Shown here: in pieces, positions 41,216 to 63,566 of the stretch
Layout: each line of letters starts with the position of its first letter
How positions within the stretch are numbered: the stretch's first letter is position 1
Source of the DNA: Arenicellales bacterium
GTDB taxonomy: Bacteria; Pseudomonadota; Gammaproteobacteria; Arenicellales; JAANXG01
DNA length: 64,000 bases
Direction: 5' to 3'
NCBI GenBank assembly: GCA_049583715.1
Contig: JBAUWJ010000279.1
Location: forward strand, 8,172 to 72,171
Program-made: the position numbers and the translations under genes
Notes under the pieces: model-generated
What the model was told of the DNA's origin: nothing
The model's input: only the letters and a program-made list of their open reading frames with translations
Database searches by the model: none

Positions 41216-42208
41216 CTACTGCATAGCCGGAATGGCTTTCGCCTCCCGCTCCAGGTCCGCCTGCACCATCTCCGCGACCAGGCTGTGGAAACCGACCTCC
41301 GGGCGCCACCCGAGGGTAGCCTTGGCCTTCGCGCAGTTGCCCAACAGAACGTCGACTTCGGCCGGCCGGAAGAACCGCTCGTCCACGACCACGAACTGCT
41401 CGTAATTCAGTCCGACCTGCTCGAAGGCGCTCCTGGCGAATTCTCGAACCGAGTGCGCCTCCTCGGACGCGATCAGATAGTCGTCGGGCTCATCCTGTTG
41501 CAGCATCGACCACATGGCCTTCACGTAGTCCCTGGCATGGCCCCAGTCGCGCCTGGCTTCCAGGTTTCCCAGGCGCAGCTCGTTGGCGAGGCCCAGCTTG
41601 ATCCTGGCGACGTGCCGGGTGATCTTGCGGGTGACGAATTCGAAACCCCGTATCGGAGATTCATGGTTGTAGAGTATGCCGGACGATGCATGTATCCCGT
41701 AGGCTTCCCGGTAGTTCCTGGTCAAGTCGAAGCCCGCGACCTTCGAGATGCCGTAGGGTGAACGGGGATGAAACGGGGTGTCCTCCGTCTGGGGAACGTC
41801 ATGGACCTTGCCGAACATCTCGCTGGATCCGGCGAAGTAGAATCGACAGTCCGGCTGGCACTCCTTGAGCGCGGCCAGAACGTAGTGCGTCCCGTTGATA
41901 TTCGTGTTCAAGGTGGAGAACTCGTCCTCGAACGAGTAGCTCACGAAGCTCTGGGCCGCGAGATGATAGAGCTCTTCGGGCTCCACCGTTTGCACAGCCT
42001 TGAAAATGCTCGGAAAACTTTCCAAAGACGCGGCATGGAGAACGACGTCGTCCAACAGATGCCGGATTCTCCACATGCGGTGATCGGGATCCTCCAGCGC
42101 GACGCGCCGCACCAGGCCGTGGACTTCGTAATTCTTGCCGAGGAGAAATTCCGCCAGGTACGCGCCGTCCTGGCCCGTAATGCCGGTTATCAAGGCGCGC
42201 TTAGCCAA
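41216..42208 (-). CDS. gmd: GDP-mannose 4,6-dehydratase
   Basis: …KRALITGITGQDGAYLAEFLLGKNYEVHG…SSEMFG…SPYGISKVAG…ILYNHESPIRG.EFVTRKIT… are canonical Gmd motifs. I placed the start at the TTG at 42208, giving (M)AKRALITG, with AAGAGG 9 nt upstream. The track ORF's 34 extra codons look non-coding. Confidence 0.9.
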   Translation of the reverse strand: MAKRALITGITGQDGAYLAEFLLGKNYEVHGLVRRVALEDPDHRMWRIRHLLDDVVLHAASLESFPSIFKAVQTVEPEELYHLAAQSFVSYSFEDEFSTLNTNINGTHYVLAALKECQPDCRFYFAGSSEMFGKVHDVPQTEDTPFHPRSPYGISKVAGFDLTRNYREAYGIHASSGILYNHESPIRGFEFVTRKITRHVARIKLGLANELRLGNLEARRDWGHARDYVKAMWSMLQQDEPDDYLIASEEAHSVREFARSAFEQVGLNYEQFVVVDERFFRPAEVDVLLGNCAKAKATLGWRPEVGFHSLVAEMVQADLEREAKAIPAMQ

Positions 42209-42248
42209 CTCAGGATGCCTCTTGTGTGCTGCGTACTGCGTCGAGTGG

Positions 42249-43238
42249 TTACAGCAGTCCGTGCTCCCGGTACCAGTCGGCCGTCGCCGCTGCGCCGGTC
42301 CGGAAATCAACTTCCGCCGAATAGCCTAGTATCCGCCCCGCTTTATCGCTGGACAAGGTGAAGCTCTTCTTGAAGAAATCCAGGCGGCGCCGGTGCAGTG
42401 GCGGTTGGATGCCGAGGGGTCGCAACACGCCCTCCAGAACGCAGGCTGCGATCGTGAACGGAAACAGCGGCACCCGCCAGGCGGGTACGCTCTTGCCGAG
42501 GGCCGCCGCGATCGTGTCGGCCATCTCGCGGGTGGTCAACGGGCGCTCCCCGGCCAGAAGGAAGACCTCGCCCGGGGCGCCTTCAGCCTCGGAAGCCCTG
42601 ACCATGCCTTTGATGAGGTCGTCGATATACACCAGATGGTGAAGGTTCCGGCCGCTGCCGATCACGAAGAACATTCCCTTGTCGATGGCGCGAAACAGCT
42701 TCAGCAGCCTGCGATCCCCGGGTCCGTACGTCTCCGAGATCCTGATGGCGACCACGGGCAGCCTGTCGCCGTAGGACAGTACGAGCCGCTCGCCCTCCAG
42801 CTTGGTGACGCCGTAGATGTTGTCGGGGGCGGGGCTCGTGGTCTCGTCGATCACGCCCTCTTTCGAGCCGTACACGCCGATCGTGCTCCCGTGGACGAAC
42901 CGCCGCACGCCGCTTTCAACGCAGACGTCGAGCAAGCGCCGGGTCCCTTCGACGTTCACGTCCCGGAAGTGTTGATCCGGAACGTTCGCTTCGTGCTGGG
43001 CGGCCGCCAGATGGTAAACGACATCCCGGCCCTTGACCCGGTCGGCGAGCCGGTCCCGGTCCGCCATCGACACCAGATCCACTTCGATGCCTTCCCGGAC
43101 GAGGAGGTTCCTGTTGTCCTCCTCGGCGGCCGTGTTGGCCTGCCCCAGAACGAGCACATCCTGTCCCGCATTCCGGCAATGAAGCGCGAGCCGCGAGCCG
43201 ATGAAGCCCGTACCGCCTGTGATCAGTGCCCGTGTCAT
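42249..43238 (-). CDS. NAD-dependent epimerase/dehydratase-family SDR (extended SDR)
   Basis: The ATG at 43238 forms an ATGA overlap with the upstream stop and gives MTRALITGGTGFIGSRLAL…. The catalytic motif YGVTK (YxxxK) is present. Length is 329 aa. Confidence 0.88.
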   Translation of the reverse strand: MTRALITGGTGFIGSRLALHCRNAGQDVLVLGQANTAAEEDNRNLLVREGIEVDLVSMADRDRLADRVKGRDVVYHLAAAQHEANVPDQHFRDVNVEGTRRLLDVCVESGVRRFVHGSTIGVYGSKEGVIDETTSPAPDNIYGVTKLEGERLVLSYGDRLPVVAIRISETYGPGDRRLLKLFRAIDKGMFFVIGSGRNLHHLVYIDDLIKGMVRASEAEGAPGEVFLLAGERPLTTREMADTIAAALGKSVPAWRVPLFPFTIAACVLEGVLRPLGIQPPLHRRRLDFFKKSFTLSSDKAGRILGYSAEVDFRTGAAATADWYREHGLL

Positions 43239-44968
43239 GCGGAGGCCGCCTGCTCCATTGCCGCAACGGAGCCGAGATGCCGGAACAGGCTTTCGACCTC
43301 TTCGACTTCCCGGCGTATGCGCTCGCCGCTCCACCCCAGCTCGCGCCCGAGGACCTGCGCACTGCGCTCTATCGCCGCGCGGCCGGGATGGCCTCCCGTG
43401 CCCAGGTCCGTGCGCCGGAAGACGACGTCCGAAAGCTTGACGGCCATCTCTTCACGAGCTGCGTAAATTACCTCTTCCTCCACGACATGACTGCCCGCCA
43501 GGAGGCGTGCCGCCGACCCGGCAGGGTTCCCTGCGGCCAGCACCCGCTCGGAGGCTATCCCATGATTTCGCGCCAGTGCGTCGCGCGTTGGAAGCGGCAG
43601 GGCCGGCCAGCGGGCCTGGATATCCGCCAGGAGATCCTCGAAACGCCCAAACCCGCTTCCGTACACATCGGTGATGTGGGTCTTCGACGCCACCCGGCCC
43701 GTGCCCAGCTTTGCCACCACCATGTCGACGGCCCTCTTCGCGTCGCTGCGGGCCATGGTATACCGGATCCCGATCAGCGAAACCAGATTGTCGATGCCAT
43801 GGGTGGTCTGGTGGTCCACGAGCCGTGAACGCTTGCCGTAGCTCAGATTTCTGGCGTCCGCCTGCCTGTCTCCGAACAGCACCAGGCCGGCGTTCCACTG
43901 CGTGACGTCTTCGAGTGAGAGATCCAGAGGCGGGTAAGCCCCGTTGATCTCGTCAATGAAACGAGCGAGGTCCTCCCGGGACACCGTGACCGCGTCCGGG
44001 TCGCCCCGGTAAACAACGTGCCAGACGCCGATGATGCTGTACTCGCGCCAAGGCACGATGAACAGGTGGCGTGCCTGGCGGCTCAACAGCGCATCGGGAT
44101 CCCGGTTTCGCGCCTGGACCGCCAGGGTATACGGGGAATCGAGGCGACGGCGCACGATGAAATAAGCGTCGCGCGAAAACGTGCTCGCCGGCGTCAGCGG
44201 CGTTGGGAGGCTTCTCGACAGAAGCCGCTCGGCCCACGGTCCCGCCGCGTTGATGAATGCGCGCCCGCGGATCACGAGCTCCGCACCACTCAGCTTGTCC
44301 CGCGCCTTCACCGCCTTGACGGAGCCGCCGGCACGCTCGAGGCCGGCGGCCTCCACGTAGTTCGCCGCATCCAGCCCGGCCGCGCACGCCGCCCGCAGGA
44401 ACGCCATGGCGAGCCGCGGCGGGCTGTACATCTGGGCATCGTGGAACAACACCCCGCCGGTCAGACCCGGATCGTCGAAACCGTCGAAATGCTCCAGGAG
44501 CTCGGACCGGGAGAGTTTGCGGGCGGCGGGGATCCTCCGCGAGGGATCATGAATGCCGCGGTTGCGATCCAGTGTCAATGCGTCGTAGGCCAGCGTGGCG
44601 GCGCGGAGAATCTCCTTGCCGTTCCTGCCGTGCCCGAACGTCGGGACCACGATGGGCAGCGGCGTGACCAAGTGGGGCGCAATCCGCAGCAGGATGCTGC
44701 GTTCGCGGGCGGACTCGCGCAGCCTGACGAGATCTCCGTGCTGCAGGTAGCGTATGCCGCCGTGCACCATCTTGTAGCAATTGGCGGACGCGGCGCCGGC
44801 GAAATCGCCGCGCTCGATCAGCGCCACCTTGAACCCCCGCAACACGGCGTCCCATGCCGCGCAGATTCCGAAAATGCCGCCGCCGATCACTACCACGTCG
44901 TAGCTGGTCGACGACAATGCGTCGAGGTCCCTCTTCATGGGCTCATAGACGCCGGCCATGTGACTCAA
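43235..44968 (-). CDS. FAD-dependent oxidoreductase, glycerol-3-phosphate dehydrogenase/oxidase (GlpD/DAO)-like
   Basis: 577 aa. The sequence …YDVVVIGGGIFGICAAWDAVLRGFKVALIERGDFAGAASANCYKMVHGGIRYLQHGD… is a typical GlpD-type N-terminus. Confidence 0.85.
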   Translation of the reverse strand: MSHMAGVYEPMKRDLDALSSTSYDVVVIGGGIFGICAAWDAVLRGFKVALIERGDFAGAASANCYKMVHGGIRYLQHGDLVRLRESARERSILLRIAPHLVTPLPIVVPTFGHGRNGKEILRAATLAYDALTLDRNRGIHDPSRRIPAARKLSRSELLEHFDGFDDPGLTGGVLFHDAQMYSPPRLAMAFLRAACAAGLDAANYVEAAGLERAGGSVKAVKARDKLSGAELVIRGRAFINAAGPWAERLLSRSLPTPLTPASTFSRDAYFIVRRRLDSPYTLAVQARNRDPDALLSRQARHLFIVPWREYSIIGVWHVVYRGDPDAVTVSREDLARFIDEINGAYPPLDLSLEDVTQWNAGLVLFGDRQADARNLSYGKRSRLVDHQTTHGIDNLVSLIGIRYTMARSDAKRAVDMVVAKLGTGRVASKTHITDVYGSGFGRFEDLLADIQARWPALPLPTRDALARNHGIASERVLAAGNPAGSAARLLAGSHVVEEEVIYAAREEMAVKLSDVVFRRTDLGTGGHPGRAAIERSAQVLGRELGWSGERIRREVEEVESLFRHLGSVAAMEQAASA

Positions 44969-45123
44969 ATGGATTCGGGGAGGCTGTTAAAGGCGCGGTA
45001 TCATAACGGCAAACGGATCGAAACGCACGCGAACCCGGGCCAAAGAGGGAGACGCACCCGCGTGCACGGCATCATCGACCGGCATCGAGACCGCCGTTCA
45101 ATGGCGGATCCGCGAATGGGGCC

Positions 45124-46692
45124 TCAGTGCGGTTGTCTCCCCTCGAAGATGAGCACCCGGTCGCCGTCCTTGTTCCAGAAGGTCTTCACCGGGTCCCGAT
45201 GCAGCTTGTACGCGACGTACTGCGCCCGCTCCGGGTCGTTGTGGGAAACATTCAGCGCCAGATAGTCATAGTGGCGCCACCGGCCGCTCCAGATCTCGTG
45301 CATCGCCTCGTCCCACGAGTACGCGGCGCCGCTGCGAAATGCCGACTCGGCACCCGCGTAATAGATCACCCGGCGCTCGTTGCTGTAGAGATTCGATCCC
45401 GTGCTCATGTGCGCCCGCAGCCAGAGCCCGGCTTCCCTCAGATAGTACTTGTTGGTGTCTATGGAAAGTCCCTTGATACCCGCTGCAAGGACGAGCAACG
45501 CCAGGGCCGGAGCCAGCCATCGAACGTGCCTCCGAGCACCCGCCGAGGAGAAGGAGCTCCACAGTCTCTCCAGGGTGAATGGGACACATGCCAGCAAGGT
45601 GAGCCCGAGGGCGAACGGATACCGATCCGTCAGGAAGAAGTTGATGAATGCGAATCCGCACAGGTATCCAAGGTTGATCGCGACCACGGCCCACCAGTAG
45701 CCGTCGACCCGGCGGCACGGGAAGAGCCGGCCCCCGGCAAGGCCATAGCCCACGAGAATGGAATACGTCACCGAGGTCGCCCTCACAATCTTGACGACCA
45801 CCATCCACCCCAGGGTGATCAGAAACGTCGGCCAGGCGACCAGGAAGGAAATGTGCCCGGGGAATTCCCGGCCGAGCGCCTCCAGCCTCGAGGTCACGTC
45901 CCGACCCACGCCAACCCAACCCGCATACAGCCGCTCCGTCAAAGTCGACGCTGCGCTGCTCGAGTCGGGCACGTGCTGCCAGAACACGGCCGAGCCTATC
46001 ATGAGCGCGCCCACTGTTGCCGCGGCGGCCACCACCACCCATCGGACGGCCCCGCGCGTTCGGGCCGCGACCAGCGAAAATGGCAACAGCACCAGAAACG
46101 CGAGTCCCTCGACGCGAAACAAGGCGGCCAGCGTCGTCGCCGCGGCCCATAGCACCAGGGATGATGTGGCTCCCGAGCGCACGTGGGAAAAGAAATACGC
46201 GAGTCCCCACAGGTAAAACGCCCAGAACCCGATGTCACGAATGACGAAAGATCGGTATTCGTTGAGACTGGGGTGCAAAAGGAGGACGATGGCGCCGAGA
46301 ACGAGCACGCGCCCTTCACCGCCAAGCGCCTGGAGAAGCGCCAGGAAGCCCCAGACCAGAAGCACGTACAGCGCGGCATTCACGCCGTAGGCGGCCTGAG
46401 CCGCCGTCAGGCCCGTGACCTTGGCGGTTGCGGCCGTCACCATGGAATAGAAAGGCCATTTGTAGACCTCGAATCCCTGGTGCCACTCGCCGCCCAGGAA
46501 ATACCCGGCGGCGCGGACGTACTGCGTGCCGTCGTTGTTGATGATGGGGTCGGCGTGCCATGCCCAGAGGGACAGCAGTATGCTGGCAAGAGCGGCGGCC
46601 GCGCACAGCCAGGGCCGCTGCACCAGGACTCGGTGGGGGTCCCGGGACACCCTGGCCGCGGGCGTGCTCAGAGAAACAGGAACAACCGCCAC
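45124..46692 (-). CDS. GT-C fold polytopic membrane glycosyltransferase, GT39/ArnT-like
   Basis: 522 aa with ~10-12 hydrophobic segments. The first periplasmic loop is …ADPIINNDGTQYVRAAGYF…. A C-terminal soluble domain follows. The start overlaps the upstream gene by 25 nt, so the start is uncertain. Confidence 0.7.
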   Translation of the reverse strand: MAVVPVSLSTPAARVSRDPHRVLVQRPWLCAAAALASILLSLWAWHADPIINNDGTQYVRAAGYFLGGEWHQGFEVYKWPFYSMVTAATAKVTGLTAAQAAYGVNAALYVLLVWGFLALLQALGGEGRVLVLGAIVLLLHPSLNEYRSFVIRDIGFWAFYLWGLAYFFSHVRSGATSSLVLWAAATTLAALFRVEGLAFLVLLPFSLVAARTRGAVRWVVVAAAATVGALMIGSAVFWQHVPDSSSAASTLTERLYAGWVGVGRDVTSRLEALGREFPGHISFLVAWPTFLITLGWMVVVKIVRATSVTYSILVGYGLAGGRLFPCRRVDGYWWAVVAINLGYLCGFAFINFFLTDRYPFALGLTLLACVPFTLERLWSSFSSAGARRHVRWLAPALALLVLAAGIKGLSIDTNKYYLREAGLWLRAHMSTGSNLYSNERRVIYYAGAESAFRSGAAYSWDEAMHEIWSGRWRHYDYLALNVSHNDPERAQYVAYKLHRDPVKTFWNKDGDRVLIFEGRQPH

Positions 46693-48845
46693 AGCGCAAC
46701 CGCCGCGTAAGCATAGTAGGCGAACCTGATGCCCCTCGGTGCCCTCAGGACGACGCCGAGCAGCACCATGTTGGCCAGGACCAGCACGCCCATCGGTTGG
46801 TGATACACGATATCGGGAGGATGACGTCCGTAGTGCGCGAGTATCACGGCGACCATGGTCGCCACCGACATCCAGAGCAGGAAGCCGGTTCTATCGGGAG
46901 CCGTGTGTTCCACACCCGCGGGCTCCACGGTGTCCTGGGCGCTCCGACGGCGCAGGGCATAGACCCAGGCCACCACGGCAAACAGGGCGCCGGGATAAAG
47001 CACGTACGCCAGGAAGTTGAACTCCTCCTTGTCCCACTCCCTCAGAAGCCCGCGCAAGCCACGCTTGTGCAACGCAGCCTGAAACGTCGGGAGCTGCCCG
47101 AGTCGAAACGAGGTTTCGAGGTTGCTCAAGCGCCTAGAGTACTGTTGCTGAACAGTGGTGTGCTCGATGAACAGCCGGGCCGACGCCGCGAGTCCTCTCG
47201 GCGACGAGTACCCGTCGAGAAAATGGGTCTTGATCTCCGTGTACTCCTCGTTGAAGTAGAGATGCTTCACGACGGCCCAGGGCGCGATCGCGGCCGCGAA
47301 CACGAGGACCAGCACCATGGGCCCGGCCAGTGCTCGAATCGACAGGAATCCCCGTTCCCGGAATCCCCGCCAGAGCGCCCACAGGTAGAAGAACGGGATC
47401 CCGAGGACGGCGCCCGCGTGAAGGTTGGCGCCAAGCCCGAACAACAGCCCGGATCTCGCCCACCCTCCCGCCGATACCCGTCTGCGGAGAAGGTAGTACA
47501 GGCCGCTCAGAAACAATGCGCCGGCGCTCATCTTGAACCAGGTGATCAGGTAGTTGCCGATCATGAACGCATTCGCGCTCACCAGCATCAGCAGGAGGAA
47601 AGTGTTCGAGACACCCAGGAATCGACGGGCGATGGCGGCTGCCGGGAACACGATCATCAGGTTCATCGCCACTCCCAGCATTGTGTAGACGAAATAGGAA
47701 CCCGCCAGAGTGCTCGACAGTGGAGCCACTATGGATCGTATCGCACCGTAGACGATCCCGGGGAGCATTTCCCTGTCCGCGACGCCGTAGATGAGCTGAC
47801 CACCGCCGTAGTATTTCTCAAAGGGGGTATTGTCGGCGATGGCCAAGCCGTTGACGTATTGCAGCATTCCGTCGTGGGCGAAGAAGGCACCGAAAGTCTT
47901 CGGCCCCGCGACATGCCTGAAATACATGTTTTGAAGGGGCAGGTTCGCGTCATGGACCAGAATCACACACAGTGCCAGCAGCAGCACCATGTAGGCGGCG
48001 ACCTCCTGCCAGGAGCCGCGCACCAGCCCTGCCACGTCTCCCCAGGCGCGCCTCCTCGAGATTTCCATTAGAAGGATCGACAGGAGTCCAGCGGCGAAAA
48101 CCAGCGTATACAGGTGGGCCCGGGACGGTGACTGGCCCAGCGCCAGCACACCGGTCAGGCACAGATAAACGACGATGTAGAACACAAGGGAGCCGGCGAA
48201 GACCCACACCTGGAGCCCCGATTCCGAGAGCGCGCGCCGGCGCAGGAGCACATAGAGCAGAGCGCCGGGAAGAAGCAACAGAACCGCGACGCCCAGGGTG
48301 ATCGCATAGGGCCACGCCCGGTAGTCCCACGGACCCAGCGGCCGCACTTTGATCGATTCGAGCACGGCATCGCCACGTTCGTTGCGGCTCCGGAAGGTCA
48401 GCCGAATCCGGCCATAGTTGCCGTCGGGTATTCGTGCGTAGTACACGGTGCCGGCGCGGTTAGGCACATCGACATTGATCCGCGCCCGTCCCAGGAACCG
48501 TTGGCCCCGCGGGGCGAAATCGACGAGGAAGTAACGGAAGTTGTCCAGACGCCGGAAACGGAATTCGAGCTTCTCGCCGCTCACACGGCGAGGGAAAGGT
48601 ATGACGAAACCGGCGTCCATATCCTGCGCCTGGATCCGGGCGCCTCCGTCGGGCAGGGGCGTATAGGCGTATACCCCATAGAAACCCGATGCCTTGGCCA
48701 GCGGCAGGCCATGGCTCGACGACTGGTCGGCGGCCATCGCGGGCGCGGCAGCAATGCCCGGCAGCAACCGTACCGCAGCGACCAGCACACAGAGCAGTAC
48801 GATGACCGGACCACGACATCGAAGAGCGTGTACGCAAGTCTTCAT
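46668..48845 (-). CDS. Large polytopic membrane protein with an N-terminal periplasmic domain (function unknown; possible GT-C-type transferase/polymerase)
   Basis: 725 aa. It has a signal/anchor sequence and a ~150-aa soluble region (…KLEFRFRRLDNFRYFLVDF…GRIRLTFRSRNERGDAVLESIKVRPL). More than 12 hydrophobic helices follow. No catalytic family was recognised by eye. Confidence 0.6.
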   Translation of the reverse strand: MKTCVHALRCRGPVIVLLCVLVAAVRLLPGIAAAPAMAADQSSSHGLPLAKASGFYGVYAYTPLPDGGARIQAQDMDAGFVIPFPRRVSGEKLEFRFRRLDNFRYFLVDFAPRGQRFLGRARINVDVPNRAGTVYYARIPDGNYGRIRLTFRSRNERGDAVLESIKVRPLGPWDYRAWPYAITLGVAVLLLLPGALLYVLLRRRALSESGLQVWVFAGSLVFYIVVYLCLTGVLALGQSPSRAHLYTLVFAAGLLSILLMEISRRRAWGDVAGLVRGSWQEVAAYMVLLLALCVILVHDANLPLQNMYFRHVAGPKTFGAFFAHDGMLQYVNGLAIADNTPFEKYYGGGQLIYGVADREMLPGIVYGAIRSIVAPLSSTLAGSYFVYTMLGVAMNLMIVFPAAAIARRFLGVSNTFLLLMLVSANAFMIGNYLITWFKMSAGALFLSGLYYLLRRRVSAGGWARSGLLFGLGANLHAGAVLGIPFFYLWALWRGFRERGFLSIRALAGPMVLVLVFAAAIAPWAVVKHLYFNEEYTEIKTHFLDGYSSPRGLAASARLFIEHTTVQQQYSRRLSNLETSFRLGQLPTFQAALHKRGLRGLLREWDKEEFNFLAYVLYPGALFAVVAWVYALRRRSAQDTVEPAGVEHTAPDRTGFLLWMSVATMVAVILAHYGRHPPDIVYHQPMGVLVLANMVLLGVVLRAPRGIRFAYYAYAAVALWRLFLFL

Positions 48846-56353: not shown

Positions 56354-56461
56354 AGGCTCCAGATCGCATGCCAGCCAGGTGAGCGGATGATAGCAAATCA
56401 GCCGCCGTCGTCCCTGGAGGGCATGGAGGTGTCGGTCGTGGCCGACGCACGACACTGTCCG

Positions 56462-57697
56462 TCACGAAGCGAGAGCCCCCTGGAATACTTCGAGATGACG
56501 TTCGATGAACCGGTCCAGGTAGAAGTTCTTGACATACGCCGCGTTGTGGCTGCTGATTTTGGCGCGTTCGCCGCTGTCCTCATAAAGACGGCAGCAGCAG
56601 CGCGTGAACTCCTCCGTATTCGACAGCGCGATGACACAGCCGGTGCGGCCGTCGCTCAGAAAATCCGTCTGTCCGCCGCGATCATAGCAGACCACGGGCA
56701 GCCCGCATTCCATGGCCTCGAGAAACACGATACCAAAGCCCTCGTGCAACGCCGTGGAAACGTAGATATCCGCCGTTTTCAACAGCTCGAACTTGCGCCG
56801 TTCCGTCACCCTGCCCGCGAACCTCACGGAATCCTCGAGCCCCAGGGCCGCCGCCCGCTGCGCCAGGGCCTGCCCTTCCGGGCCCTCGCCCACGACCAGG
56901 AGCCGGCAGGGAACGCGCGTGCGTATCTTACCCAGTATGTCCAGGAGTTCCGAGACATTTTTCCGCCTGATCAGTCTGCCGACAGTGATCAACACGAACT
57001 CGTCCTCCTTCAAACCCAGGCTCGCGCGGTCCGCGCGAGCCTGGGCATTCGGCTTGACGGCGAGAGGAATGATATCCATCCCCCTTCTTATCCCGTAGTG
57101 GCGGCGCGCCTTCTTCTCGATGTCCGTCGATTCCGCCACCACCCTGTCGGCCGACTCGACCATCTTCTTTACGGTCGCCCTCAACAGCGGCGTCCGGTGT
57201 GGGGAAAGAACCTTGCTGGGATCGTAGATATCGCCTCCCAGGATATGCAGAACGTTCGGGATGGTGAACTTGCGCGACAGGTAGTTCCCGGCCGGTCCCG
57301 ATGGAACGGCGAAGTAGCTGTTGAGGAGGTCGAAGCCGCCGTCTGCGAGCACACGCCCTCCCCGGTTGATCGCCAGTGGAACGTAGCTCAGCATCGATGC
57401 CATGGACGCCACGTTCTGCTGGCGCCGGAACAACACCGGGACCCGATGCAGGGACACACCGTTCATTGTCTCGATCGACGGGCTGTCACGAAATTGCGAC
57501 GTGATCACCGCTACCTCATGCCCTTTCTCAACCAGGCCTTCGGCAAGGTCCCGGCACAGCACGCCCCCTCCACCACCGACGGGCGGGTACTCGTAGTTGA
57601 TCATAAGGATTCTCAAGAGGCGTTGCCCGCGGGCCCGGGCTTCTTCGGCCCGGCTCGTTCGGTCATGCAGGAAACTGTTCAATGGACCCCTCGCCAT
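56462..57697 (-). CDS. Glycosyltransferase family 4 (GT-B, retaining)
   Basis: Motifs present: …ILMINYEYPPVGGGGGV… and …EGFGIVFLEAMECGLPVV…. The true start is probably internal (TTG at 57618 giving MRILMINYEYPP, or ATG at 57606). The longest ORF is given here. Confidence 0.85.
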   Translation of the reverse strand: MARGPLNSFLHDRTSRAEEARARGQRLLRILMINYEYPPVGGGGGVLCRDLAEGLVEKGHEVAVITSQFRDSPSIETMNGVSLHRVPVLFRRQQNVASMASMLSYVPLAINRGGRVLADGGFDLLNSYFAVPSGPAGNYLSRKFTIPNVLHILGGDIYDPSKVLSPHRTPLLRATVKKMVESADRVVAESTDIEKKARRHYGIRRGMDIIPLAVKPNAQARADRASLGLKEDEFVLITVGRLIRRKNVSELLDILGKIRTRVPCRLLVVGEGPEGQALAQRAAALGLEDSVRFAGRVTERRKFELLKTADIYVSTALHEGFGIVFLEAMECGLPVVCYDRGGQTDFLSDGRTGCVIALSNTEEFTRCCCRLYEDSGERAKISSHNAAYVKNFYLDRFIERHLEVFQGALAS

Positions 57698-57758
57698 GCG
57701 ACCCGGCCGCCCGCTCGTCGTTGGCTCGAAACGGACGTCCCGGACGCGAGCGGCCCGT

Positions 57759-58634
57759 TCAACGGGTCGCCACGATGTTCAGGTTCGCGTTAGGCTCTTC
57801 GGCGGCCGCCAGAATGGACGACGCGGCGCCTGGCACTCCTCCCCGGCCGTCCGGCTCAACCGGACGCAAGGTGTAACCCTCTGACACGAGGGAGTCCAGA
57901 AAAGTTGCGGGATCCTCGCCCAGCGCCCGAAGGTGCCCCGGCACGAACTCGAACAGCATGACCTGCGGCTTGAATCGACCCAATCCCGAGATGACCTGGG
58001 GCTCCGCGCCTTCCACGTCAATCTTGGCGACCCGGGGCTCGAAGGCCAGCTCCTCGAGCACCTCCTCCCCCCGCCTGACGGGGACGCTGACAGACCTCCC
58101 CGTTCCCCCCAGGTCGGCGAAGCTCAAATTCCCGCGGTTGTCGTCGGCCTGGAACAGTCCCGCCTCCCCGGACACCGTCCCCAGCGCGAAAGGCAGCACG
58201 ATCACGTTGTCGCAGTGGTTGGCTTCGAGGTTTGCCCTCAACAGCGCGAGATTGTCGGGATCGGGCTCCACGGCGAGCACCTTGCCGGCCGGCCCGACCG
58301 CGCGCGACAGGTACAGTGAATAGATCCCGATATTGGCCCCCACGTCCATGACCCGGTCGCCCGGCCTGACCAGGGAGCACAGAAGCTCGATCTCCCGTTC
58401 CTCGTAGGCACCGTAGAGGATGATCTTCTTTGCGATGACCCGGTCGCGCATGTCGACGCGTACCCGGAACGGCCCGACGTCGACTTCGTCCCCTTTGTGC
58501 AGCGATATCGCGAGCCTGCCATGGACACGATTCAGCAAGGGTATTCGCGCCAGGGGCGTGTGGCGCAGCCTCGAGCCCATCGCCGCCATTATCCTCAGAA
58601 GCAGCGACACGGCGTTTTCCGGACGCGCAGGCAC
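57759..58634 (-). CDS. FkbM-family SAM-dependent methyltransferase
   Basis: 291 aa with …VMDVGANIGIYSLYLSR…VLAVEPDPDNLALLRANLEAN…AKIDVEGAE…. Confidence 0.85.
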   Translation of the reverse strand: MPARPENAVSLLLRIMAAMGSRLRHTPLARIPLLNRVHGRLAISLHKGDEVDVGPFRVRVDMRDRVIAKKIILYGAYEEREIELLCSLVRPGDRVMDVGANIGIYSLYLSRAVGPAGKVLAVEPDPDNLALLRANLEANHCDNVIVLPFALGTVSGEAGLFQADDNRGNLSFADLGGTGRSVSVPVRRGEEVLEELAFEPRVAKIDVEGAEPQVISGLGRFKPQVMLFEFVPGHLRALGEDPATFLDSLVSEGYTLRPVEPDGRGGVPGAASSILAAAEEPNANLNIVATR

Positions 58635-58664
58635 CGGTTCATCGATGAAGGCCCATACCCGGCG

Positions 58665-60548
58665 CTACCTGCCGATGTCGATCTTTCCGAGCGACAGATT
58701 GCTCACACTGACGGTCGTCGCCGCGATCCCCGGATCGATCCTGAGCTGCGAGCAGATCGGAACATCGAACACGACCACCAGGTCGCTCCTACCTGCAGGA
58801 TACCGCACTTCGTAAGAGTCCTCTTCGTTGAATCCACTGCCCTTGTTTACGTATACCTTGAAAATGCCCCGCTCCCCCGAATCTATCTTCGCCTGAAGCA
58901 GATTGTGTCCCTGGAAGAGGGTGCACATCCTCTCATCCGAGATGCTGACTATGAACCATGGATCGGTCCCCTCCGACACCAGGCGAAATCCCGTGGGTGT
59001 CATCGAGAAATCGCTGATCTCGTGTTTGCGAAGCACATCCTGCGGCGGGATGTTGATGGGTTGAAGGCCGCGATGAAGCCGTATCGGGTAAACCGGCGGC
59101 CGGTAGAAGGGCACGACGTAGTTCACGAGTCCATCGATGTGCACGCCCAGCAGCACGACCGCCGTGCCGAGTATCGTGGCCCTCTGCACGGTCCGCCCGT
59201 TGAGAATGACCGCGCCGGGCTCCCGCTCCATCAGCGACGGTGCCACGCGGGACACGACCGCCCTCACCGCACTGGTCCCCAGCAGCACCGGTGCCAGCAG
59301 GACGGGAAGCAGGTACTTGCCCTGAAGCTGAATGTCGTTGTGCATGTTGGCCCACACGTACATGCAGAACTGGAACAGAACGGCGAAAACCAGCAGCGTC
59401 TCGAACACCACCTCGCGGTCCCTCGACGAGTCCTCACCGGTGACTGTTCTCCTGTACAGAAGCGCACCGACTCTCGCCACCACGTAAATACCGCCGACCA
59501 GGAACAAGGCCAGATACAAGCCGTACTGCAGGGGGCCGAGCCGTATCCGCAGCCAATCGAGGTTCCCTATCGTGGAGGCGATGGTCTTGCCCCAGAAGTT
59601 GTCATGGTCATTGAGCAGCAGGTCGGCATACCCCACCCCCTTCGCGGCGTAGCCGAACTCCTTGCCCGGCGGAAATCTGCTGTGCCTGGCCTCCAGGGCG
59701 GCTTCGGTCCGACCGACGAAGGGATCGCCCGGTCCGTAGTGGTACATATTGAACAGAATCCACCAGCCACCGGACAGGACCAGCACCACCAGCGCGACGG
59801 ATGCATACTTCCACAGCGCGGCCCAGTGGGCGCGCACGTACAGCGCGAGGAATATCAGTACCGTCGGCGCCAGCAGCCAGGCCGTCGGCTTGGACAGGAT
59901 GACCAGTCCACCCGCGATTCCCAGCACAATGGCGTTGACCCAGTTCGTCCCGCCCCGCAGGATCCTGACCAGCACGCACAACATCAAGCTCGCGGAGAAG
60001 ATCGCACCGGAATCGTCATTGTTGTAAGAGGCGATGAACGCGAACTGCGGCAGGAGACCAAACAGCAGCGCCACGATGACTCCGGCGCCAAAGCTGTTGA
60101 AATACAACACCCCCGTATAGAAAGCGATCGCCACCGTAGCCGCCGCCAGCAGCGCGGATCCTTTGCGAAAGAGAATGAACGAGTTCGCGATCCACGGTCG
60201 CAGCACCCTCGCAGCCACCGCCGACACGATATACGACAAGGGCGGTCGCAGAGCACGGGTGTCCCCGTAGTCGGAATATCGGATCTTGTTTTCATCCCTG
60301 GGAACGACGGCCAGTCGGTGATACGTGTATATGAATCGTACCGCGTCGTTGTTCGTCGTATAGTCCGGACCCGCACCGGCAGGCAACAGGCTGGACGTGA
60401 TGAAGTAGTACAGCGCGAATACGGCGAATATGATCAGGGAGAAATAAATGCAGCGCTGATGGCGATGCGGGTCACCGTCCTCGCCAAGTATCCGGGGAGG
60501 TTCGCCGTCCTGCCCGATGTTGCCTGCTCCGGCGTAAGGCTGGATCAT
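58665..60548 (-). CDS. GT-C-like polytopic membrane protein with a C-terminal periplasmic beta-sandwich-like domain
   Basis: The ATG at 60548 forms an ATGA overlap with the upstream GT4 stop. It has ~12 hydrophobic segments. The first loop, …PDYTTNNDAVRFIYTY…, resembles that of 45124-46692. The C-terminal ~150 aa are soluble and end …QLRIDPGIAATTVSVSNLSLGKIDIGR. Confidence 0.65.
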   Translation of the reverse strand: MIQPYAGAGNIGQDGEPPRILGEDGDPHRHQRCIYFSLIIFAVFALYYFITSSLLPAGAGPDYTTNNDAVRFIYTYHRLAVVPRDENKIRYSDYGDTRALRPPLSYIVSAVAARVLRPWIANSFILFRKGSALLAAATVAIAFYTGVLYFNSFGAGVIVALLFGLLPQFAFIASYNNDDSGAIFSASLMLCVLVRILRGGTNWVNAIVLGIAGGLVILSKPTAWLLAPTVLIFLALYVRAHWAALWKYASVALVVLVLSGGWWILFNMYHYGPGDPFVGRTEAALEARHSRFPPGKEFGYAAKGVGYADLLLNDHDNFWGKTIASTIGNLDWLRIRLGPLQYGLYLALFLVGGIYVVARVGALLYRRTVTGEDSSRDREVVFETLLVFAVLFQFCMYVWANMHNDIQLQGKYLLPVLLAPVLLGTSAVRAVVSRVAPSLMEREPGAVILNGRTVQRATILGTAVVLLGVHIDGLVNYVVPFYRPPVYPIRLHRGLQPINIPPQDVLRKHEISDFSMTPTGFRLVSEGTDPWFIVSISDERMCTLFQGHNLLQAKIDSGERGIFKVYVNKGSGFNEEDSYEVRYPAGRSDLVVVFDVPICSQLRIDPGIAATTVSVSNLSLGKIDIGR

Positions 60549-61666
60549 TGCTGCGGCATCTGCACTTCGGCCTGCTCCAGGACCTCGAGCGTCTCCCTGG
60601 CGCACTTCTCCCAGCTGAAATCCCCGGCGCGCTTGTGCCCGGCCTCGATCAAACGGCGGCGAAGCTGCTGGTCGTCGATCACCTGTTCGATGCCCTCGGC
60701 GATGCTGTCCACATGGTCCGGGTCCACCAGCAGAGCGGCGCCGCCCGCGATCTCGGCGGCGCCGTAGCAGTCGGAAGTGACCACCGGACAGCCGCTCGAC
60801 ATCGCTTCGACGATGGGTGTTCCGAAAGACTCGTATAAGGAAGGGAGCACCAGGGCCTCCGCCAGCCTGTAGAAAGCCGGAAGGTCGCCCCGCCCGATCC
60901 AGCCCGGCCGCACGACCCAGTCGCCGAGGCCCAGCTTGTCTATGAGGGCGATCTCATCTTCACAGAGCCAGGTATGGCTGCCGGCCACCACCAAGGAGAT
61001 TCCCTGCGGCGGGCCGACCCTGGCATAGGCCTGGATCAGGCGACCGAAGTTCTTGGGAGGATAGATCTGCCCGCAATACAGGAGAAAGCGCTCGGGCAGG
61101 CCGTACCTGCGCCTCACCTCCTCCAGGCGCTCGGGCGCTACGGGCAGCGAAAAGGCTTCGTCCACTCCGTGATATACGGTGTGGACGCGACTCTCCTCGG
61201 CATGCAGATATTCGATCATGTTCTGGCGGGCCGTCTCCGAGACGGCAATGATGGCCGCTGCCTTCTTCGTGTAGCGGGGTATCAGCAGTCGGTGGTTGAT
61301 CCGGTCCAGCGGTCTGGATCCCCAGGGCATGATATACCAGTCCAGGCCGTGGCAAACGAATACGCCGCGACAATTCGACATCAAAGGCAGCGAATACTTG
61401 GGGTTGAAGATGATGTCCAGATGCTCTCTGCGCGCGGCCTGCCAGGCGGCCCACTGGTCCCACATCAGGGTCGGGGCCCTGCCCAGTACCAGCTCCCGGA
61501 CCTGCGCACCGCGGCCGTACGCACCAACCCGGGTGTCATCCGAGTGAAGCAGCACGAATTCGTGGCCGGTATCCATGGCCAGGAGCCGTCTGAGGAGACT
61601 CTCGGTGTACACCAGCACGCCCCCGCCATGCTGGCCCAGATGCCGCAGCATTATCCCGATCTTCAT
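60545..61666 (-). CDS. Glycosyltransferase family 4 (GT-B, retaining)
   Basis: 373 aa starting MKIGIMLRHLG…, with …PSLYESFGTPIVEAMSSGCPVVTSD… (E-x7-E region). Confidence 0.88.
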   Translation of the reverse strand: MKIGIMLRHLGQHGGGVLVYTESLLRRLLAMDTGHEFVLLHSDDTRVGAYGRGAQVRELVLGRAPTLMWDQWAAWQAARREHLDIIFNPKYSLPLMSNCRGVFVCHGLDWYIMPWGSRPLDRINHRLLIPRYTKKAAAIIAVSETARQNMIEYLHAEESRVHTVYHGVDEAFSLPVAPERLEEVRRRYGLPERFLLYCGQIYPPKNFGRLIQAYARVGPPQGISLVVAGSHTWLCEDEIALIDKLGLGDWVVRPGWIGRGDLPAFYRLAEALVLPSLYESFGTPIVEAMSSGCPVVTSDCYGAAEIAGGAALLVDPDHVDSIAEGIEQVIDDQQLRRRLIEAGHKRAGDFSWEKCARETLEVLEQAEVQMPQQ

Positions 61667-61727
61667 GATGCTAGGTTCGGTGTGACCGGCTCTTTAGTCG
61701 ATAAGGTGACACACTAGGACAGTCCGT

Positions 61728-63566
61728 TCAATATGCGTCAATGCGCACTCCCGGCGTCGTTCGCTTCGCCGCCAGCTTGGTGAAGAGAAACCGGATCGCC
61801 TGCATGAAAGCATTGACCGAGAACACGTAACGTTTCCCGTCGACCAGGGTAACGTCCCCCGCGCAGGACGTGGTATGCAGCCCGCGCCCGTAGGGGCCAT
61901 GGATATCGGGCTCGACCACCGCCGCCGGCTCTTCGGCGAAGGCCGTCGTGCTGAGCTCGATGACGCGGTTGATGACCACTCGGCCGCCGTAGGTCCGCGA
62001 GCAGTCCTGTGCCGGCCGGTAAAGGCTGCCGGCATGCGTGAATGGGGTCCCCGCGGGGCGGCTGGAGGTGATGTCGAGCTTTACCGGATTCAAGGGGTGC
62101 GGCGCCCAAGGGCCCGCAATATCCGGCGCATGCCACAGCAGCAGCTTGTAGTACCTGCCGTCCGCCAGGTTGGTGCAGGCCAGCCACCATCTCCCATCAT
62201 GCTCGAAGACAGTGACGTCTACCGCGGGCAGATCGTCGATGAGCGTCGCCACCTTCACCCAGGATTCGGGGAAGCGCTCGGCCTTGTACAGGACCACCTC
62301 ACCCGACGCCGATGACTCCGGAATGCAATACACGTGGTCGAGGTGTTTCACCAGATACGGATAGGACATGTGAAACGCCCTCGTGAACGCGGGCCCCTTG
62401 CTCCGTATGGCCCCGCCTTCGGACACCTGCAGATGGGAGATGGTGCCCCTCATCGATTTGTAGTCGTAGTCCTCACACAGTACATGCAAGTGCCCGCCCT
62501 CGAAAATACCGAAGGGGTCGGCAAGAAAGGTTCCCCTCTTCGGATCCGGCAGCCATTGGACCTCCCGCTCGGCATTTTCGTTCAAGAGTGCATCGATAGG
62601 CTCTCTCACTATTCCGATGTTCCACTGCTCGTGCCGAAACAAGGAGCGAAACGTGACCGCGGCGAGGTTCTTGGCCAGTTTCGCCCACAACCTGGCCGTT
62701 TGGAAGTTGGTGGGCGGTCCGTATGCCGGCGGCGCGGCACGGGAAGGCGGGTCGTCGAGCGACGTCCGGCCGCCCTTGAGCAGGCTCATGCACACCTGCG
62801 CCGGCCATACGGCGGATTCTTCGAGAACCCGGCTCAGGTTGGCGCCATAGGAGTAGGCCACGGTGGGAAAGGACCCTTTCTTCAGAACGACTCTCCCTTC
62901 GGAGGTGAGCCTGCACAGGGCTGCTCCCGAAACTGGATCGCCGTTGTAGATTTCCCAGAAACACGGCGGCTCGCCGCGATATTTCGCGACGTCACCGTGT
63001 TGGAAGATCCATACACCGCACCGGGCGGCCCCTATCATGCCCCCTGCGAGCCGCTCGCCCGCGAGACCGAGAATGAAATCGAGATCCTTTGCCCTGACCG
63101 CACCGACATCGTCTTCGTTGAAGTCCGCATAGCGGCCGCGGCCACCCGCGACCGTGCATTCCAACGTCGGAACCCGGGCAAGCGCCGGCGACAGGTCCAT
63201 GGGCTTCAGAGCCGCACGTCTTGCGAGCGCCCGCCGGTAGAGTCGAAAGAGAAAGCTGCCGTTGGACACGCTTGCCGGCCCGGGCGAACACTCGGGACCC
63301 ACGCGTATCAGTAAGGCGGGCTCGAGGTTCTCGAGCGCCATCAAACGCCTGACGCAAGCCGCTTGCCAGCCCTCCAGCAAAGTATCCCGGCACAGGATCC
63401 CAAAGCGCAGCGCGCCCTGACCGGCACCCTTTCGGGTGTCGCTGTCGTAGTCAGTCACCACAAAGTACCTTCGAGACGCCGCTCGAGTCCGCTCCCGGTG
63501 GCTTCCGGTCAGGTCTTTGCGCGATCGACGGTTGTCCCCGCTTCGCGGGTCGAGGGCACCGGCCAT
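61728..63566 (-). CDS. Fusion protein: formyltransferase-like N-terminal domain + C-terminal beta-propeller-like domain (GH43-like / 'glucosamine inositolphosphorylceramide transferase'-type family)
   Basis: The N-terminal half reads …RFGILCRD…DLDFILGLAGERL…GVWIFQHGDVAKYRGEPPCFWEI…, a formyl_trans_N-like core (cf. H…RG of Fmt/PurN). The C-terminal half reads …WNIGIVREPI…FLADPF…FHMSYPYLV…VDVTVFEHDGRWWL…SRPAGTPF…. The start is uncertain; a GTG at 63461 with GAAGG upstream is an alternative. Confidence 0.6.
   Translation of the reverse strand: MAGALDPRSGDNRRSRKDLTGSHRERTRAASRRYFVVTDYDSDTRKGAGQGALRFGILCRDTLLEGWQAACVRRLMALENLEPALLIRVGPECSPGPASVSNGSFLFRLYRRALARRAALKPMDLSPALARVPTLECTVAGGRGRYADFNEDDVGAVRAKDLDFILGLAGERLAGGMIGAARCGVWIFQHGDVAKYRGEPPCFWEIYNGDPVSGAALCRLTSEGRVVLKKGSFPTVAYSYGANLSRVLEESAVWPAQVCMSLLKGGRTSLDDPPSRAAPPAYGPPTNFQTARLWAKLAKNLAAVTFRSLFRHEQWNIGIVREPIDALLNENAEREVQWLPDPKRGTFLADPFGIFEGGHLHVLCEDYDYKSMRGTISHLQVSEGGAIRSKGPAFTRAFHMSYPYLVKHLDHVYCIPESSASGEVVLYKAERFPESWVKVATLIDDLPAVDVTVFEHDGRWWLACTNLADGRYYKLLLWHAPDIAGPWAPHPLNPVKLDITSSRPAGTPFTHAGSLYRPAQDCSRTYGGRVVINRVIELSTTAFAEEPAAVVEPDIHGPYGRGLHTTSCAGDVTLVDGKRYVFSVNAFMQAIRFLFTKLAAKRTTPGVRIDAY

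Follow-up and report, generated by a model that had tools for sequence, protein, structure and literature searches.

A composite, probable envelope-glycan gene cluster with a predicted lipid-linked ribofuranose pathway in an Arenicellales bacterium

We analysed a 64,000-nt stretch of DNA (hereafter the window) from an Arenicellales bacterium, a member of an uncultured marine gammaproteobacterial order (GCA_049583715.1; contig JBAUWJ010000279.1, positions 8,172-72,171 of the forward strand), and in it an operon-like cluster of 16 open reading frames (ORFs), here g1 to g16, that run on the minus strand from 63566 down to 41216. In the reading that we favour, with a probability of roughly 0.55, this is a composite envelope-glycan locus that joins at least two separable gene sets and has no polymerisation or export genes of its own. 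One set is a pentose path in which g9 would make a lipid-linked pentose and g12 would use it. The other, which we call module A, is a recurrent set of tailoring and GT4 glycosyltransferase genes that comprises g5, g6, g7, g8, g10, g14 and g15 and probably also g2 and g4. The pentose genes g9 and g12 form the other part of the cluster together with g1, g3, g11, g13 and g16.

Predicted donor synthesis

The gene g9 (51156..52604, minus strand) encodes a HAD::UbiA fusion, a predicted polyprenyl-phosphate 5-phosphoribosyltransferase (PPPRS) with a built-in phosphoribose phosphatase (PRP). Read from its 482-aa start it has the length of NCBIfam NF006088, which it matches at 550.6 bits (cut-off 351); the next NCBIfam matches are DPPRS models (129-156 bits), whereas heme O synthase, UbiA and DGGGPS models reach 35-65 bits. 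Its best solved relative is the DPPRS of Mycobacterium tuberculosis, Rv3806c (PDB 8j8j, E = 3.6e-27), against E = 5e-5 for DGGGP synthase. The UbiA domain is therefore of the phosphoribosyltransferase kind and not that of a quinone or haem prenyltransferase, as the original prediction for this DNA had expected. The HAD domain (Pfam E = 1.9e-11) has a DLDGT motif in which D16 and D18 are invariant, so that the catalytic DxD is kept, and in the UbiA domain N249/D250/D253/D257 (NDxxDxxxD) and R368/E371 (R..E) are invariant among 24 homologues, the first of these motifs also aligning to Rv3806c.

This architecture has been characterised in Citrobacter youngae, where ORF15 consists of an N-terminal HAD phosphatase and a C-terminal PPPRS and makes farnesyl-phosphate-ribofuranose (farnesyl-P-Ribf) from phosphoribosyl pyrophosphate (PRPP), and where a D18A mutant left Ribf-5-P (Kelly et al., PNAS 2024, PMC11127046). 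The residues mutated in ORF15 match those of g9, both at D18 (with D16 in g9) and, at motif positions offset by two, at N247/D248/D251/D255 and R366/E369, and g9 has every sequence-level feature of the ORF15-type PRP::PPPRS family. Its predicted product is polyprenyl-P-beta-D-ribofuranose. ORF15 acts with the MATE flippase ORF14 and with ORF12 (GT136), a GT-C glycosyltransferase bearing a carbohydrate-binding module (CBM), to make periplasmic alpha-pentofuranose side chains; xylofuranose is obtained via ORF13, an epimerase of the short-chain dehydrogenase/reductase (SDR) type, and arabinofuranose via DprE1/E2 (PMC11127046). Three-component pentofuranosylation systems of this type occur widely, Xanthomonas and Bacillus having 'more elaborate' ones, and the transporters named for them are of MATE and SMR types, MprF-type proteins not being among them (PMC11127046). 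The earlier view of this donor logic as only sporadic in Gram-negative bacteria has thus been overtaken by that work: because the HAD(PRP)::UbiA(PPPRS) fusion was characterised biochemically in 2024, the donor logic is real but no longer new.

Our survey of HAD::UbiA neighbourhoods took in 80 loci of species-representative genomes, which include Mesorhizobium, Burkholderia, Xanthomonas, Stenotrophomonas, Pseudomonas, Acidobacteriota, Myxococcota and Planctomycetota. Plasmids, too, often carry members of the family. A DprE1-like gene is present in 48 of these loci, mostly immediately 3' of HAD::UbiA, a DprE2-like gene in 34, extended SDRs in 18-32 and an LPG_synthase_TM protein in 11, mostly directly 5'. 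Further neighbours are GtrA, small EamA proteins, a class-III aminotransferase, a flavoprotein of the amine-oxidase type and membrane proteins that are GT87-like or GT-C-like. The DprE1-like, GtrA, EamA, LPG_synthase_TM and GT-C-like neighbours correspond to the 'three-component' pattern (PMC11127046). No relative of g14, g12, g13 or g1 was found in any of the 80 loci. A 60%-identical relative of g9 forms a compact module with LPG_synthase_TM, DprE1-like and DprE2-like genes. In loci of Mesorhizobium and its relatives (L009-L014, L017, L024, L030, L031, L041, L042, L047 and L086), HAD::UbiA, a DprE1-like gene and a small EamA gene are followed by an extended SDR, a class-III aminotransferase and a GT87-like membrane protein; a DprE2-like gene was not detected in most of them, and another Mesorhizobium locus, L021, is of the DprE2-containing type. 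The oxidase and aminotransferase of the Mesorhizobium-type loci hint at a lipid-linked amino-pentose donor.

Public annotations of members of the g9 family read '4-hydroxybenzoate polyprenyltransferase', and taken at their word they would make g9 an ordinary aromatic prenyltransferase of the ubiquinone, menaquinone or haem O type and the cluster unrelated to lipid-linked pentoses. The NCBIfam scores and the PDB ranking rule out g9 as a quinone or haem prenyltransferase, and the DprE1-like genes in 48/80 family loci and the biochemical characterisation of the same architecture as a PPPRS (PMC11127046) point the same way, which leaves this explanation barely credible.

Candidate transferases

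The gene g12 (46668..48845, minus strand) encodes a 725-aa membrane protein with an N-terminal anchor, a CBM-like beta-sandwich at residues ~50-170, ~12 transmembrane (TM) helices and a strongly conserved loop at residues 298-370, which helix counting would place in the periplasm. It has no sequence match in Pfam, NCBIfam or PDB, and its family is rare (10 clusters of relatives found). The AlphaFold2 (AF2) model has a pLDDT of 59.5 overall and of ~85 in the N-terminal beta-sandwich, which is followed by the ~12 helices, and Foldseek related the sandwich to CBM6/35/4/32 modules, though with weak E-values (no better than 2e-3). CBM-like periplasmic domains also occur in GT136 ORF12 and in Emb proteins (PMC11127046).

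Four independent arrangements connect homologues of g12 with HAD(::UbiA) genes: in the full cluster; directly upstream of HAD::UbiA-DprE1-DprE2 and a left-handed beta-helix (LbH) gene in L088; divergently beside a divergent HAD::UbiA in L104; and directly after a stand-alone HAD gene in L106/L107. This repeated linkage, together with the periplasmic CBM-like domain and the conserved loop, makes g12 the best candidate for the transferase, and it is likely to be a pentofuranosyltransferase that would use the g9 product. The stand-alone HAD genes before the g12 homologues (L106 1292-1882, L107 169-759) encode 196-aa proteins and not HAD::UbiA fusions, an arrangement that resembles the split PRP/PPPRS noted in a phage genome (Kelly et al., PMC11127046).

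The product of g3 (58665..60548, minus strand) is a 627-aa PMT_2/ArnT-like GT-C glycosyltransferase (PMT_2 E = 1.4e-6, above the gathering score) with ~11 hydrophobic helices and, at the C-terminus, ~150 aa of soluble sequence; the gene begins within an ATGA shared with the end of g2, and gene calls in relatives give 623-627 aa. The polytopic membrane protein encoded by g13 (45124..46692, minus strand) has ~500-520 aa, its true start probably being at 46650 or 46623, and belongs to a large PMT_2-related (GT-C) family; searched exhaustively at E<=1e-3, it has 1367 representative relatives. Although g13 itself has no PMT_2 match, 17 of 54 sampled family members do (best E = 2e-8), and we therefore regard it as a GT-C of the PMT_2/ArnT kind; N52/D54, just after TM1, are near-invariant in the family. 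Neither g12, g13 and g1 nor the g13 family profile gave a meaningful sequence match in PDB.

The original prediction had counted three GT-C-like proteins. This holds for g3 directly and for g13 through its relatives but not for g12, for which there is no detectable sequence or profile link to GT-C. That the three might be paralogous GT-Cs is ruled out, as no relation was seen in pairwise BLAST of g3, g12 and g13 and no profile similarity between the g12 and g13 families by hhalign. Candidates in the cluster for the GT-C part of a three-component system are g12, which is HAD(::UbiA)-linked and polytopic and has a CBM-like domain, and the PMT_2-type g3 and g13.

Module A and the flippase-like proteins

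A scan with the g14 alignment identified relatives of g14 (36-55% identity) in 12 metagenome loci that lack HAD::UbiA. These loci carry g15-like SDRs (35-60% identity), g5-like GT4s (42-52%), g8-like AsnB proteins (up to 62%) and g6-like LbH proteins (up to 56%), as well as LPG_synthase_TM proteins, methyltransferases, carbamoyltransferases, a polysaccharide deacetylase and a FemAB-like acyltransferase. The g14-like gene is directly followed by the g15 relative in L092, L094 and L096 and adjoins the g5 relative in L090-L093, and the proteins of L092, a locus of 31% G+C, are 44-62% identical to those of the window. Neither HAD::UbiA nor g12 or g13 was found in the g14-relative loci, including five with long flanks (up to 10 kb). 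Because relatives of module A recur in distant bacteria without a PPPRS, and because g7 and g10 group with them, we regard the cluster as a composite. The module-A loci (L090-L097) come from metagenomic bins of 31% and of 60-67% G+C, and by eye some of them also hold a GMC oxidoreductase and a PaaK/CapK-like gene. We found no literature on the module-A gene combination or on the glycans of Arenicellales.

Two genes of module A encode MprF-type, flippase-like membrane proteins. That of g7 (54556..55614, minus strand) consists of LPG_synthase_TM only (PF03706 E = 1.8e-40; TIGR00374), and that of g10 (50141..51118, minus strand) has similar matches (PF03706 E = 2e-41; TIGR00374) and a weak one to HpnL. 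The original prediction had placed both in the pentose toolkit. This does not agree with their affinities: g10 scores 115-136 bits against module-A paralogues and 37-42 bits against the subfamily adjacent to HAD::UbiA in other genomes, and for g7 and g10 together the corresponding values are 72-136 and 25-42 bits. The HAD::UbiA-neighbouring genes, which lie directly upstream of it in L005, L008, L018, L021, L025, L026, L057, L060 and L065 and downstream in L019, L032 and L074, form a distinct LPG_synthase_TM subfamily beside HAD::UbiA-DprE1-DprE2, with Xanthomonas albilineans and Stenotrophomonas among its carriers. This suggests that a stand-alone MprF-type subfamily is a third candidate class of polyprenyl-P-pentose flippase beyond MATE and SMR.

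Also in module A, the GT4 glycosyltransferase g5 (56462..57697, minus strand; Pfam) scores 141 bits against TIGR03999 (BshA), below the cut-off, and its closest solved relatives are BshA, a GlcNAc transferase to malate (6n1x/5d00, E ~1e-25), then WaaG and PimA/PimB'. The LbH (hexapeptide) acyl- or acetyltransferase g6 (55607..56353, minus strand; Hexapep E = 9e-11; WcaF family, 80 bits) has a hydrophobic segment at residues 30-56 and relatives of 30-56% identity in L090-L092. The glutamine-dependent AsnB-like amidotransferase g8 (52601..54556, minus strand; Asn_synthase E = 2.6e-88, GATase_7; TIGR03108, 543 bits, below cut-off), which probably amidates a sugar carboxylate, has its 62% relative in L092. 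Of the two probable members, g2 (60545..61666, minus strand) is a retaining, nucleotide-sugar-dependent GT4 glycosyltransferase (Glycos_transf_1 E = 2.5e-32, Glyco_transf_4) with a 61% relative in L091, and g4 (57759..58634, minus strand) is an FkbM-family SAM methyltransferase (TIGR01444 E = 1.1e-28; Methyltransf_21).

These parts could also be read as a self-contained lipoglycan or glycolipid path that follows, in a Gram-negative bacterium, the logic of mycobacterial phosphatidylinositol mannoside, lipomannan and lipoarabinomannan synthesis. In the cytoplasm the GT4s would glycosylate a membrane lipid (e.g. one with a head group of phosphatidylglycerol type) and module A would tailor it, the MprF-like proteins would flip it, much as MprF does with modified phosphatidylglycerol, and the three polytopic transferases would extend it in the periplasm from polyprenyl-P-pentose. 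The 64 kb hold no genes for an initiating phosphoglycosyltransferase (PGT), a polymerase or an exporter, and there are two MprF-type flippase-like proteins, characterised members of whose family flip modified phospholipids; that the family flips lipid-linked glycans is a prediction of Makarova et al. (PMC5898192). Moreover, g5 has PimA and PimB' among its solved relatives and matches the NCBIfam GlcNAc-PG synthase and MGlcDAG synthase models (all below their cut-offs), g6 has a membrane anchor, and g14 is similar to an enzyme whose substrate is glycerol phosphate. Nevertheless, the GT4 affinities are weak and below family cut-offs, the best match being BshA with its soluble acceptor; the module-A loci elsewhere resemble decorated exopolysaccharide loci (carbamoyltransferase, polysaccharide deacetylase, FemAB-like); and ordinary Wzx/Wzy loci contain relatives of g1. 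Genes for initiation and export, in addition, are often unlinked from the glycan locus, as is wecA in enterobacterial ABC-type O-antigen synthesis. We consider such a path unlikely. A stronger version, in which the cluster makes a self-sufficient lipid-anchored envelope glycan that bypasses the Wzx/Wzy, ABC-transporter and synthase routes, as a Gram-negative counterpart of mycobacterial lipoarabinomannan assembly, seems quite unlikely: module A would then produce a glycolipid, the GlpD-like enzyme would act on a glycerol-phosphate-like moiety, the stand-alone MprF proteins would serve as flippases and the three transferases would elongate from polyprenyl-P-pentofuranose. Were this so, g12 would be the founder of a new transferase family.

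The donor sugar

The original prediction had described the donor as similar to decaprenylphosphoryl arabinose (DPA) and had assigned a pair of an FAD oxidoreductase and an SDR to the DprE1/E2 step. The pair is g14 (43235..44959, minus strand), a GlpD/GlpO-like FAD oxidoreductase of module A (DAO E = 3.6e-39, with DAO_C), and g15 (42249..43238, minus strand), an extended SDR (Epimerase E = 4e-41; HpnA, 129 bits, below cut-off) whose start overlaps the g14 stop (ATGA). The best PDB relative of g14 is 2qcu (E = 9.6e-36), and it scores 208 bits against the GlpD NCBIfam equivalog with a cut-off of 360. Its alignment keeps GGxRYL and two basic positions that we take to be phosphate-binding in GlpD, but in place of H233 and R317 of EcGlpD (H/R in GlpO 2rgh as well) g14 and its orthologues have Y and V. 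The score below cut-off and these two changes rule out g14 as a bona fide GlpD or GlpO. A further DAO protein of the window, an 808-aa DAO + FAO_M + GCV_T fusion of the dimethylglycine/sarcosine dehydrogenase type (5155-7581, plus strand), is unrelated to g14.

The best PDB matches of g15 are 3wj7 (an uncharacterised oxidoreductase), MoeE5, RmlB and UDP-GlcA 4-epimerase. Its assignment as Rmd (GDP-4-keto-6-deoxymannose reductase) is not supported, with no Rmd among the best 60 PDB matches, and it scores 62-72 bits both against Rmd-like ORFs and against SDRs directly downstream of HAD::UbiA; its orthologues also occur without gmd. Of DprE1 itself there is no trace: the cluster has no FAD_binding_4 protein, and the DprE1-like protein of L005 finds nothing in the window by tblastn. 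For DprE2, likewise, the cluster has no adh_short protein and the window no tblastn match.

If g14 oxidised the 2'-OH and g15 reduced the 2'-keto group, the two would be a non-orthologous replacement of DprE1/DprE2, the donor would be DPA-like polyprenyl-P-arabinofuranose, and three GT-C proteins might build an arabinan-like structure. Several observations would fit this model. The two genes are coupled and are kept in all three full-cluster lineages, and the distribution is complementary, in that full clusters have g14/g15 without DprE1/E2 and their closest HAD::UbiA/g12 relatives outside have DprE1/E2 without g14. The retained GGxRYL and basic positions together with the changed H233/R317 positions fit another substrate in which an alcohol adjoins a phosphate ester, and DprE1, like GlpD, is a membrane-associated flavoenzyme. 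On the other hand, g14 relatives with an adjacent g15-like SDR occur without HAD::UbiA within up to 10 kb, in loci that hold GT4, AsnB, LbH, carbamoyl- and methyltransferases; none of the 80 HAD::UbiA loci has a g14-like gene, while 48 have a DprE1-like one; and g15 shows no special affinity to the SDRs beside HAD::UbiA. Because their relatives sit in loci without a PPPRS while HAD::UbiA relatives pair with true DprE1/E2, g14 and g15 are, judged from sequence, probably not a DprE1/E2 substitute, and the arabinose model is doubtful. With no DprE1/E2 in the window, ribofuranose rather than arabinose is the default donor sugar, and polyprenyl-P-ribofuranose, not a DPA-like donor, is the supported product.

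Extent, surroundings and remaining genes of the cluster

A check of the window's ORFs confirmed all 16 genes at the coordinates first reported, on one strand. Their third-position G+C (GC3) of 0.74-0.82 is the coding pattern of this 64% G+C genome, the shadow ORFs that overlap them lack any third-position G+C excess, and gene calls made independently on related contigs recover these 16 genes in unchanged order. Synteny of the cluster is kept in two further related lineages (L003/L004/L089 and, in part, L100). The four start/stop overlaps, some of which had depended on revised start codons, are all present (ATGA at g2/g3, 60548/60545; GTGA at g8/g9, 52604/52601; ATGA at g14/g15, 43238/43235; TGATG at g7/g8, 54556), and the equivalent pairs overlap by identical lengths in the gene calls of related contigs. 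The ORF of g7 shares 8 nt with the end of g6 and 1 nt with the beginning of g8, and the widest internal gaps are ~208 nt (g11-g12) and ~164 nt (g13-g14). Scans of the cluster for promoter and terminator consensus sequences gave no signal above chance, and its base composition is not distinct from its surroundings. The Pfam and NCBIfam domain calls agree with those made earlier for g16 (gmd), g15 (extended SDR), g2 and g5 (GT4), g4 (FkbM), g6 (LbH), g8 (AsnB), g9 (HAD::UbiA), g14 (DAO/GlpD-like) and g7 and g10 (LPG_synthase_TM).

Housekeeping genes surround the cluster and make up the rest of the window, as had been claimed. The gene 3' of g16 is a convergent M23 peptidase, followed by xseA, guaB, guaA, tadA, mltF and macAB-like genes, and this flank is the same in two relatives; the first 29 kb of the window hold rnr, purA, hflKCX, miaA, mutL, amiC, queG, recR, dnaX and the SRP RNA. 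The small bacterial SRP RNA (28098-28195, minus strand) adjoins dnaX, and there are three tRNA genes, Leu-CAG, Ser-GGA and Ser-CGA (2813-2899, plus strand; 28437-28526 and 33561-33650, minus strand). None of these RNA genes abuts the cluster, and there is therefore no tRNA-linked island signature.

Upstream of g1 lies a leader of ~430 bp (63567..64000) that is non-coding and has no ORF continuing the cluster; we take it as the boundary and promoter region. Neither the cluster nor the other 41 kb of the window has a member of the Wzx, Wzy, Wzz, Wzm/Wzt or PGT families by Pfam or NCBIfam, none lies directly upstream in the relative L007, and g12 and g13 have no Wzy_C or O-antigen-ligase match, which bears out the original prediction that these functions are absent. 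A standard O-antigen or capsule locus, with Wzx + Wzy (+ Wzz) or Wzm + Wzt plus an initiating phosphoglycosyltransferase, is accordingly not found within the window. Since the window stops 434 bp upstream of g1 and the source contig is 82.6 kb long, the cluster could be the distal part of such a locus with these genes just past 64000; flippase-like, UbiA, FAD-binding and GtrA genes of Xanthomonas do share a lipopolysaccharide cassette with wzm/wzt, and the three-component genes of C. youngae lie inside an O-antigen locus (PMC11127046). This is nonetheless very unlikely, given that those 434 bp have no cluster-strand ORF, that in L007 (g1 56% identical) a divergent YdjM-family gene precedes the g1 equivalent after a gap of ~530 bp, and that housekeeping genes lie downstream of the cluster both here and in two relatives. 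Two sigma-70-like hexamer pairs at 63868-63992 (plus strand) are directed away from the cluster; they are no more numerous than expected by chance and would be compatible with a divergent gene past 64000, as YdjM in L007.

Three genes outside module A remain. The product of g1 (61728..63566, minus strand; GINT1_N E = 2.4e-37), absent from the earlier gene list, is a cytoplasmic protein with a formyltransferase fold and a C-terminal five-bladed propeller; the NCBI gene call is a 577-aa form starting at 63461. Its AF2 model (pLDDT 91.9) matches Fmt/ArnA-N/WbkC and GH130/GH117(/GH43-like) structures in Foldseek. In the formyltransferase domain the catalytic triad is degenerate, the Fmt Asn and His positions not being conserved in the family; in bacterial GINT1_N proteins the GH130/GH43-like propeller keeps many invariant acidic, His and Arg residues. 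A 33% homologue in Sutcliffiella horikoshii (L102 10001-11671) lies between a GT4 gene, to which it is translationally coupled, and a PGT gene in a Wzz-Wzx-Wzy locus. As this homologue sits in a Wzx/Wzy locus, we regard the g1-GT4 pair as ordinary cytoplasmic repeat-unit chemistry. The product of g11 (49054..50040, minus strand) is probably exported, with an Arg-rich signal-like N-terminus and no TM helices. It had been called a secreted PD40 propeller; the TolB/PD40 signature is there, but the matches are weak, TolB at E = 7.5e-6 with no stretch passing alone and faint PD40/Tricorn_N matches in orthologues. The last gene of the cluster, g16 (41216..42208, minus strand), encodes a GDP-mannose 4,6-dehydratase (GDP_Man_Dehyd E = 1.1e-115; TIGR01472, 395 bits).

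Discussion

Gene families, motifs and linkages are computed results here, and from them we infer a donor, a flipping step, an order of steps and an acceptor as follows. At the cytoplasmic face of the inner membrane g9 would transfer ribose-5-phosphate from PRPP to polyprenyl phosphate (probably undecaprenyl-P), and its fused HAD domain would strip the 5-phosphate to leave polyprenyl-P-ribofuranose. This would be flipped to the periplasm, possibly by g7 or g10, the only flippase candidates in the cluster. There g12 would move the pentose onto an acceptor glycan held by its CBM-like domain, and the PMT_2-type g3 and g13 would attach other sugars in the periplasm, taken from lipid-linked donors. 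The most likely role of module A is to build the acceptor glycan or glycolipid and to modify it by oxidation, amidation, acetylation and methylation; g16 may supply a GDP-6-deoxyhexose precursor, and the g1-g2 pair may contribute to building the acceptor. Initiation, polymerisation and export would be encoded elsewhere or not be needed.

Several points weigh against this composite reading. Both g7 and g10 fall in a branch of LPG_synthase_TM that does not accompany HAD::UbiA in other genomes, and the cluster has one lipid-linked-sugar synthase for three polytopic transferases. Epimerisation of the lipid-linked ribose in this genome, by g14 with g15 or by an ORF13-like action of g15 alone, is possible though unsupported. 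The upstream boundary of the cluster depends on L007, whose g1 is 56% identical.

The closest parallel is the three-component system of C. youngae O1/O2. In both, the synthase is a HAD phosphatase joined to a UbiA-type PPPRS with motifs at nearly the same positions, a polytopic transferase with a carbohydrate-binding-like domain (here the candidate g12) is linked to it, and the locus also contains a supply of GDP-mannose-derived 6-deoxyhexose and GT4 enzymes. In contrast to C. youngae, the 16 genes encode no MATE, SMR, EamA or GtrA domain but only LPG_synthase_TM proteins, which are MprF-type and of a different lineage; the CBM-like domain of g12 is N-terminal, unlike that of ORF12, and no relation to a known GT-C family was detected; there are two extra PMT_2-type enzymes; the cluster lacks Wzm/Wzt, a terminator of the WbdD type and a backbone polymerase and is not part of a defined polysaccharide locus that brings its own assembly and export genes, as judged from the window and from the gene upstream in L007; and the pentose genes are embedded in an unrelated tailoring module.

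The mycobacterial DPA pathway (Rv3806c, Rv3807c, DprE1/DprE2, Rv3789, Aft/Emb) shares with g9 the first step from PRPP and polyprenyl-P, and its Rv3806c is the closest solved structure to g9; both systems would use periplasmic GT-C-type transferases with CBMs and a lipid-linked pentofuranose donor. It differs in that the window has no homologue of DprE1 (FAD_binding_4), DprE2 (classical SDR) or the GtrA/SMR-type Rv3789, in that the phosphatase role falls to the HAD domain of the fusion and not to PAP2, and in that arabinose is not indicated. Pilin arabinosylation in Pseudomonas aeruginosa PA7/Pa5196 (PPPRS, DprE1/E2 homologues and the GT-C TfpW) is likewise Gram-negative and combines a PPPRS-derived lipid-linked pentofuranose with a GT-C, but its PPPRS lacks the fused HAD domain of g9 (PMC11127046), and the Arenicellales cluster has neither a pilin gene nor DprE1/E2.

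Other Gram-negative glycan loci show the same pairing of HAD::UbiA with LPG_synthase_TM as the Arenicellales cluster, but they have true DprE1/DprE2 and an LPG_synthase_TM subfamily distinct from g7/g10 and lie beside ABC-transporter genes, their function being taken from annotation. To our knowledge, flippase activity has been shown for no stand-alone bacterial member of COG0392. For this family (MprF flippase domain/archaeal AglD C-terminal domain) Makarova et al. (2015, PMC5898192) predicted a role as flippases of lipid-linked glycans that are encoded beside PMT/STT3-like enzymes, and g7 and g10 are stand-alone members, without the aminoacyl-PG synthase domain of MprF, that are encoded beside PMT_2-type GT-Cs and a polyprenyl-P-sugar synthase.

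The combination of parts in this cluster is unusual, while its central chemistry was described in 2024 (PMC11127046). Established concepts are refined rather than changed, and the earlier reading of the flavoenzyme and SDR as a DprE1/E2 replacement is corrected. The g12 family, the MprF-type subfamily that recurs beside HAD::UbiA and module A are worth following up. Module A, an uncharacterised and conserved tailoring set with a GlpD-like flavoenzyme, an SDR and AsnB at its centre, occurs in genomes as different in base composition as 31% and 64% G+C. If the composite model is true, periplasmic pentofuranosylation as a strategy would reach an uncultured marine gammaproteobacterial order, g12 would represent a new family of pentofuranosyltransferases, and the MprF-type proteins beside the synthases in 11 of the 80 loci would point to a third class of lipid-linked-sugar flippases.

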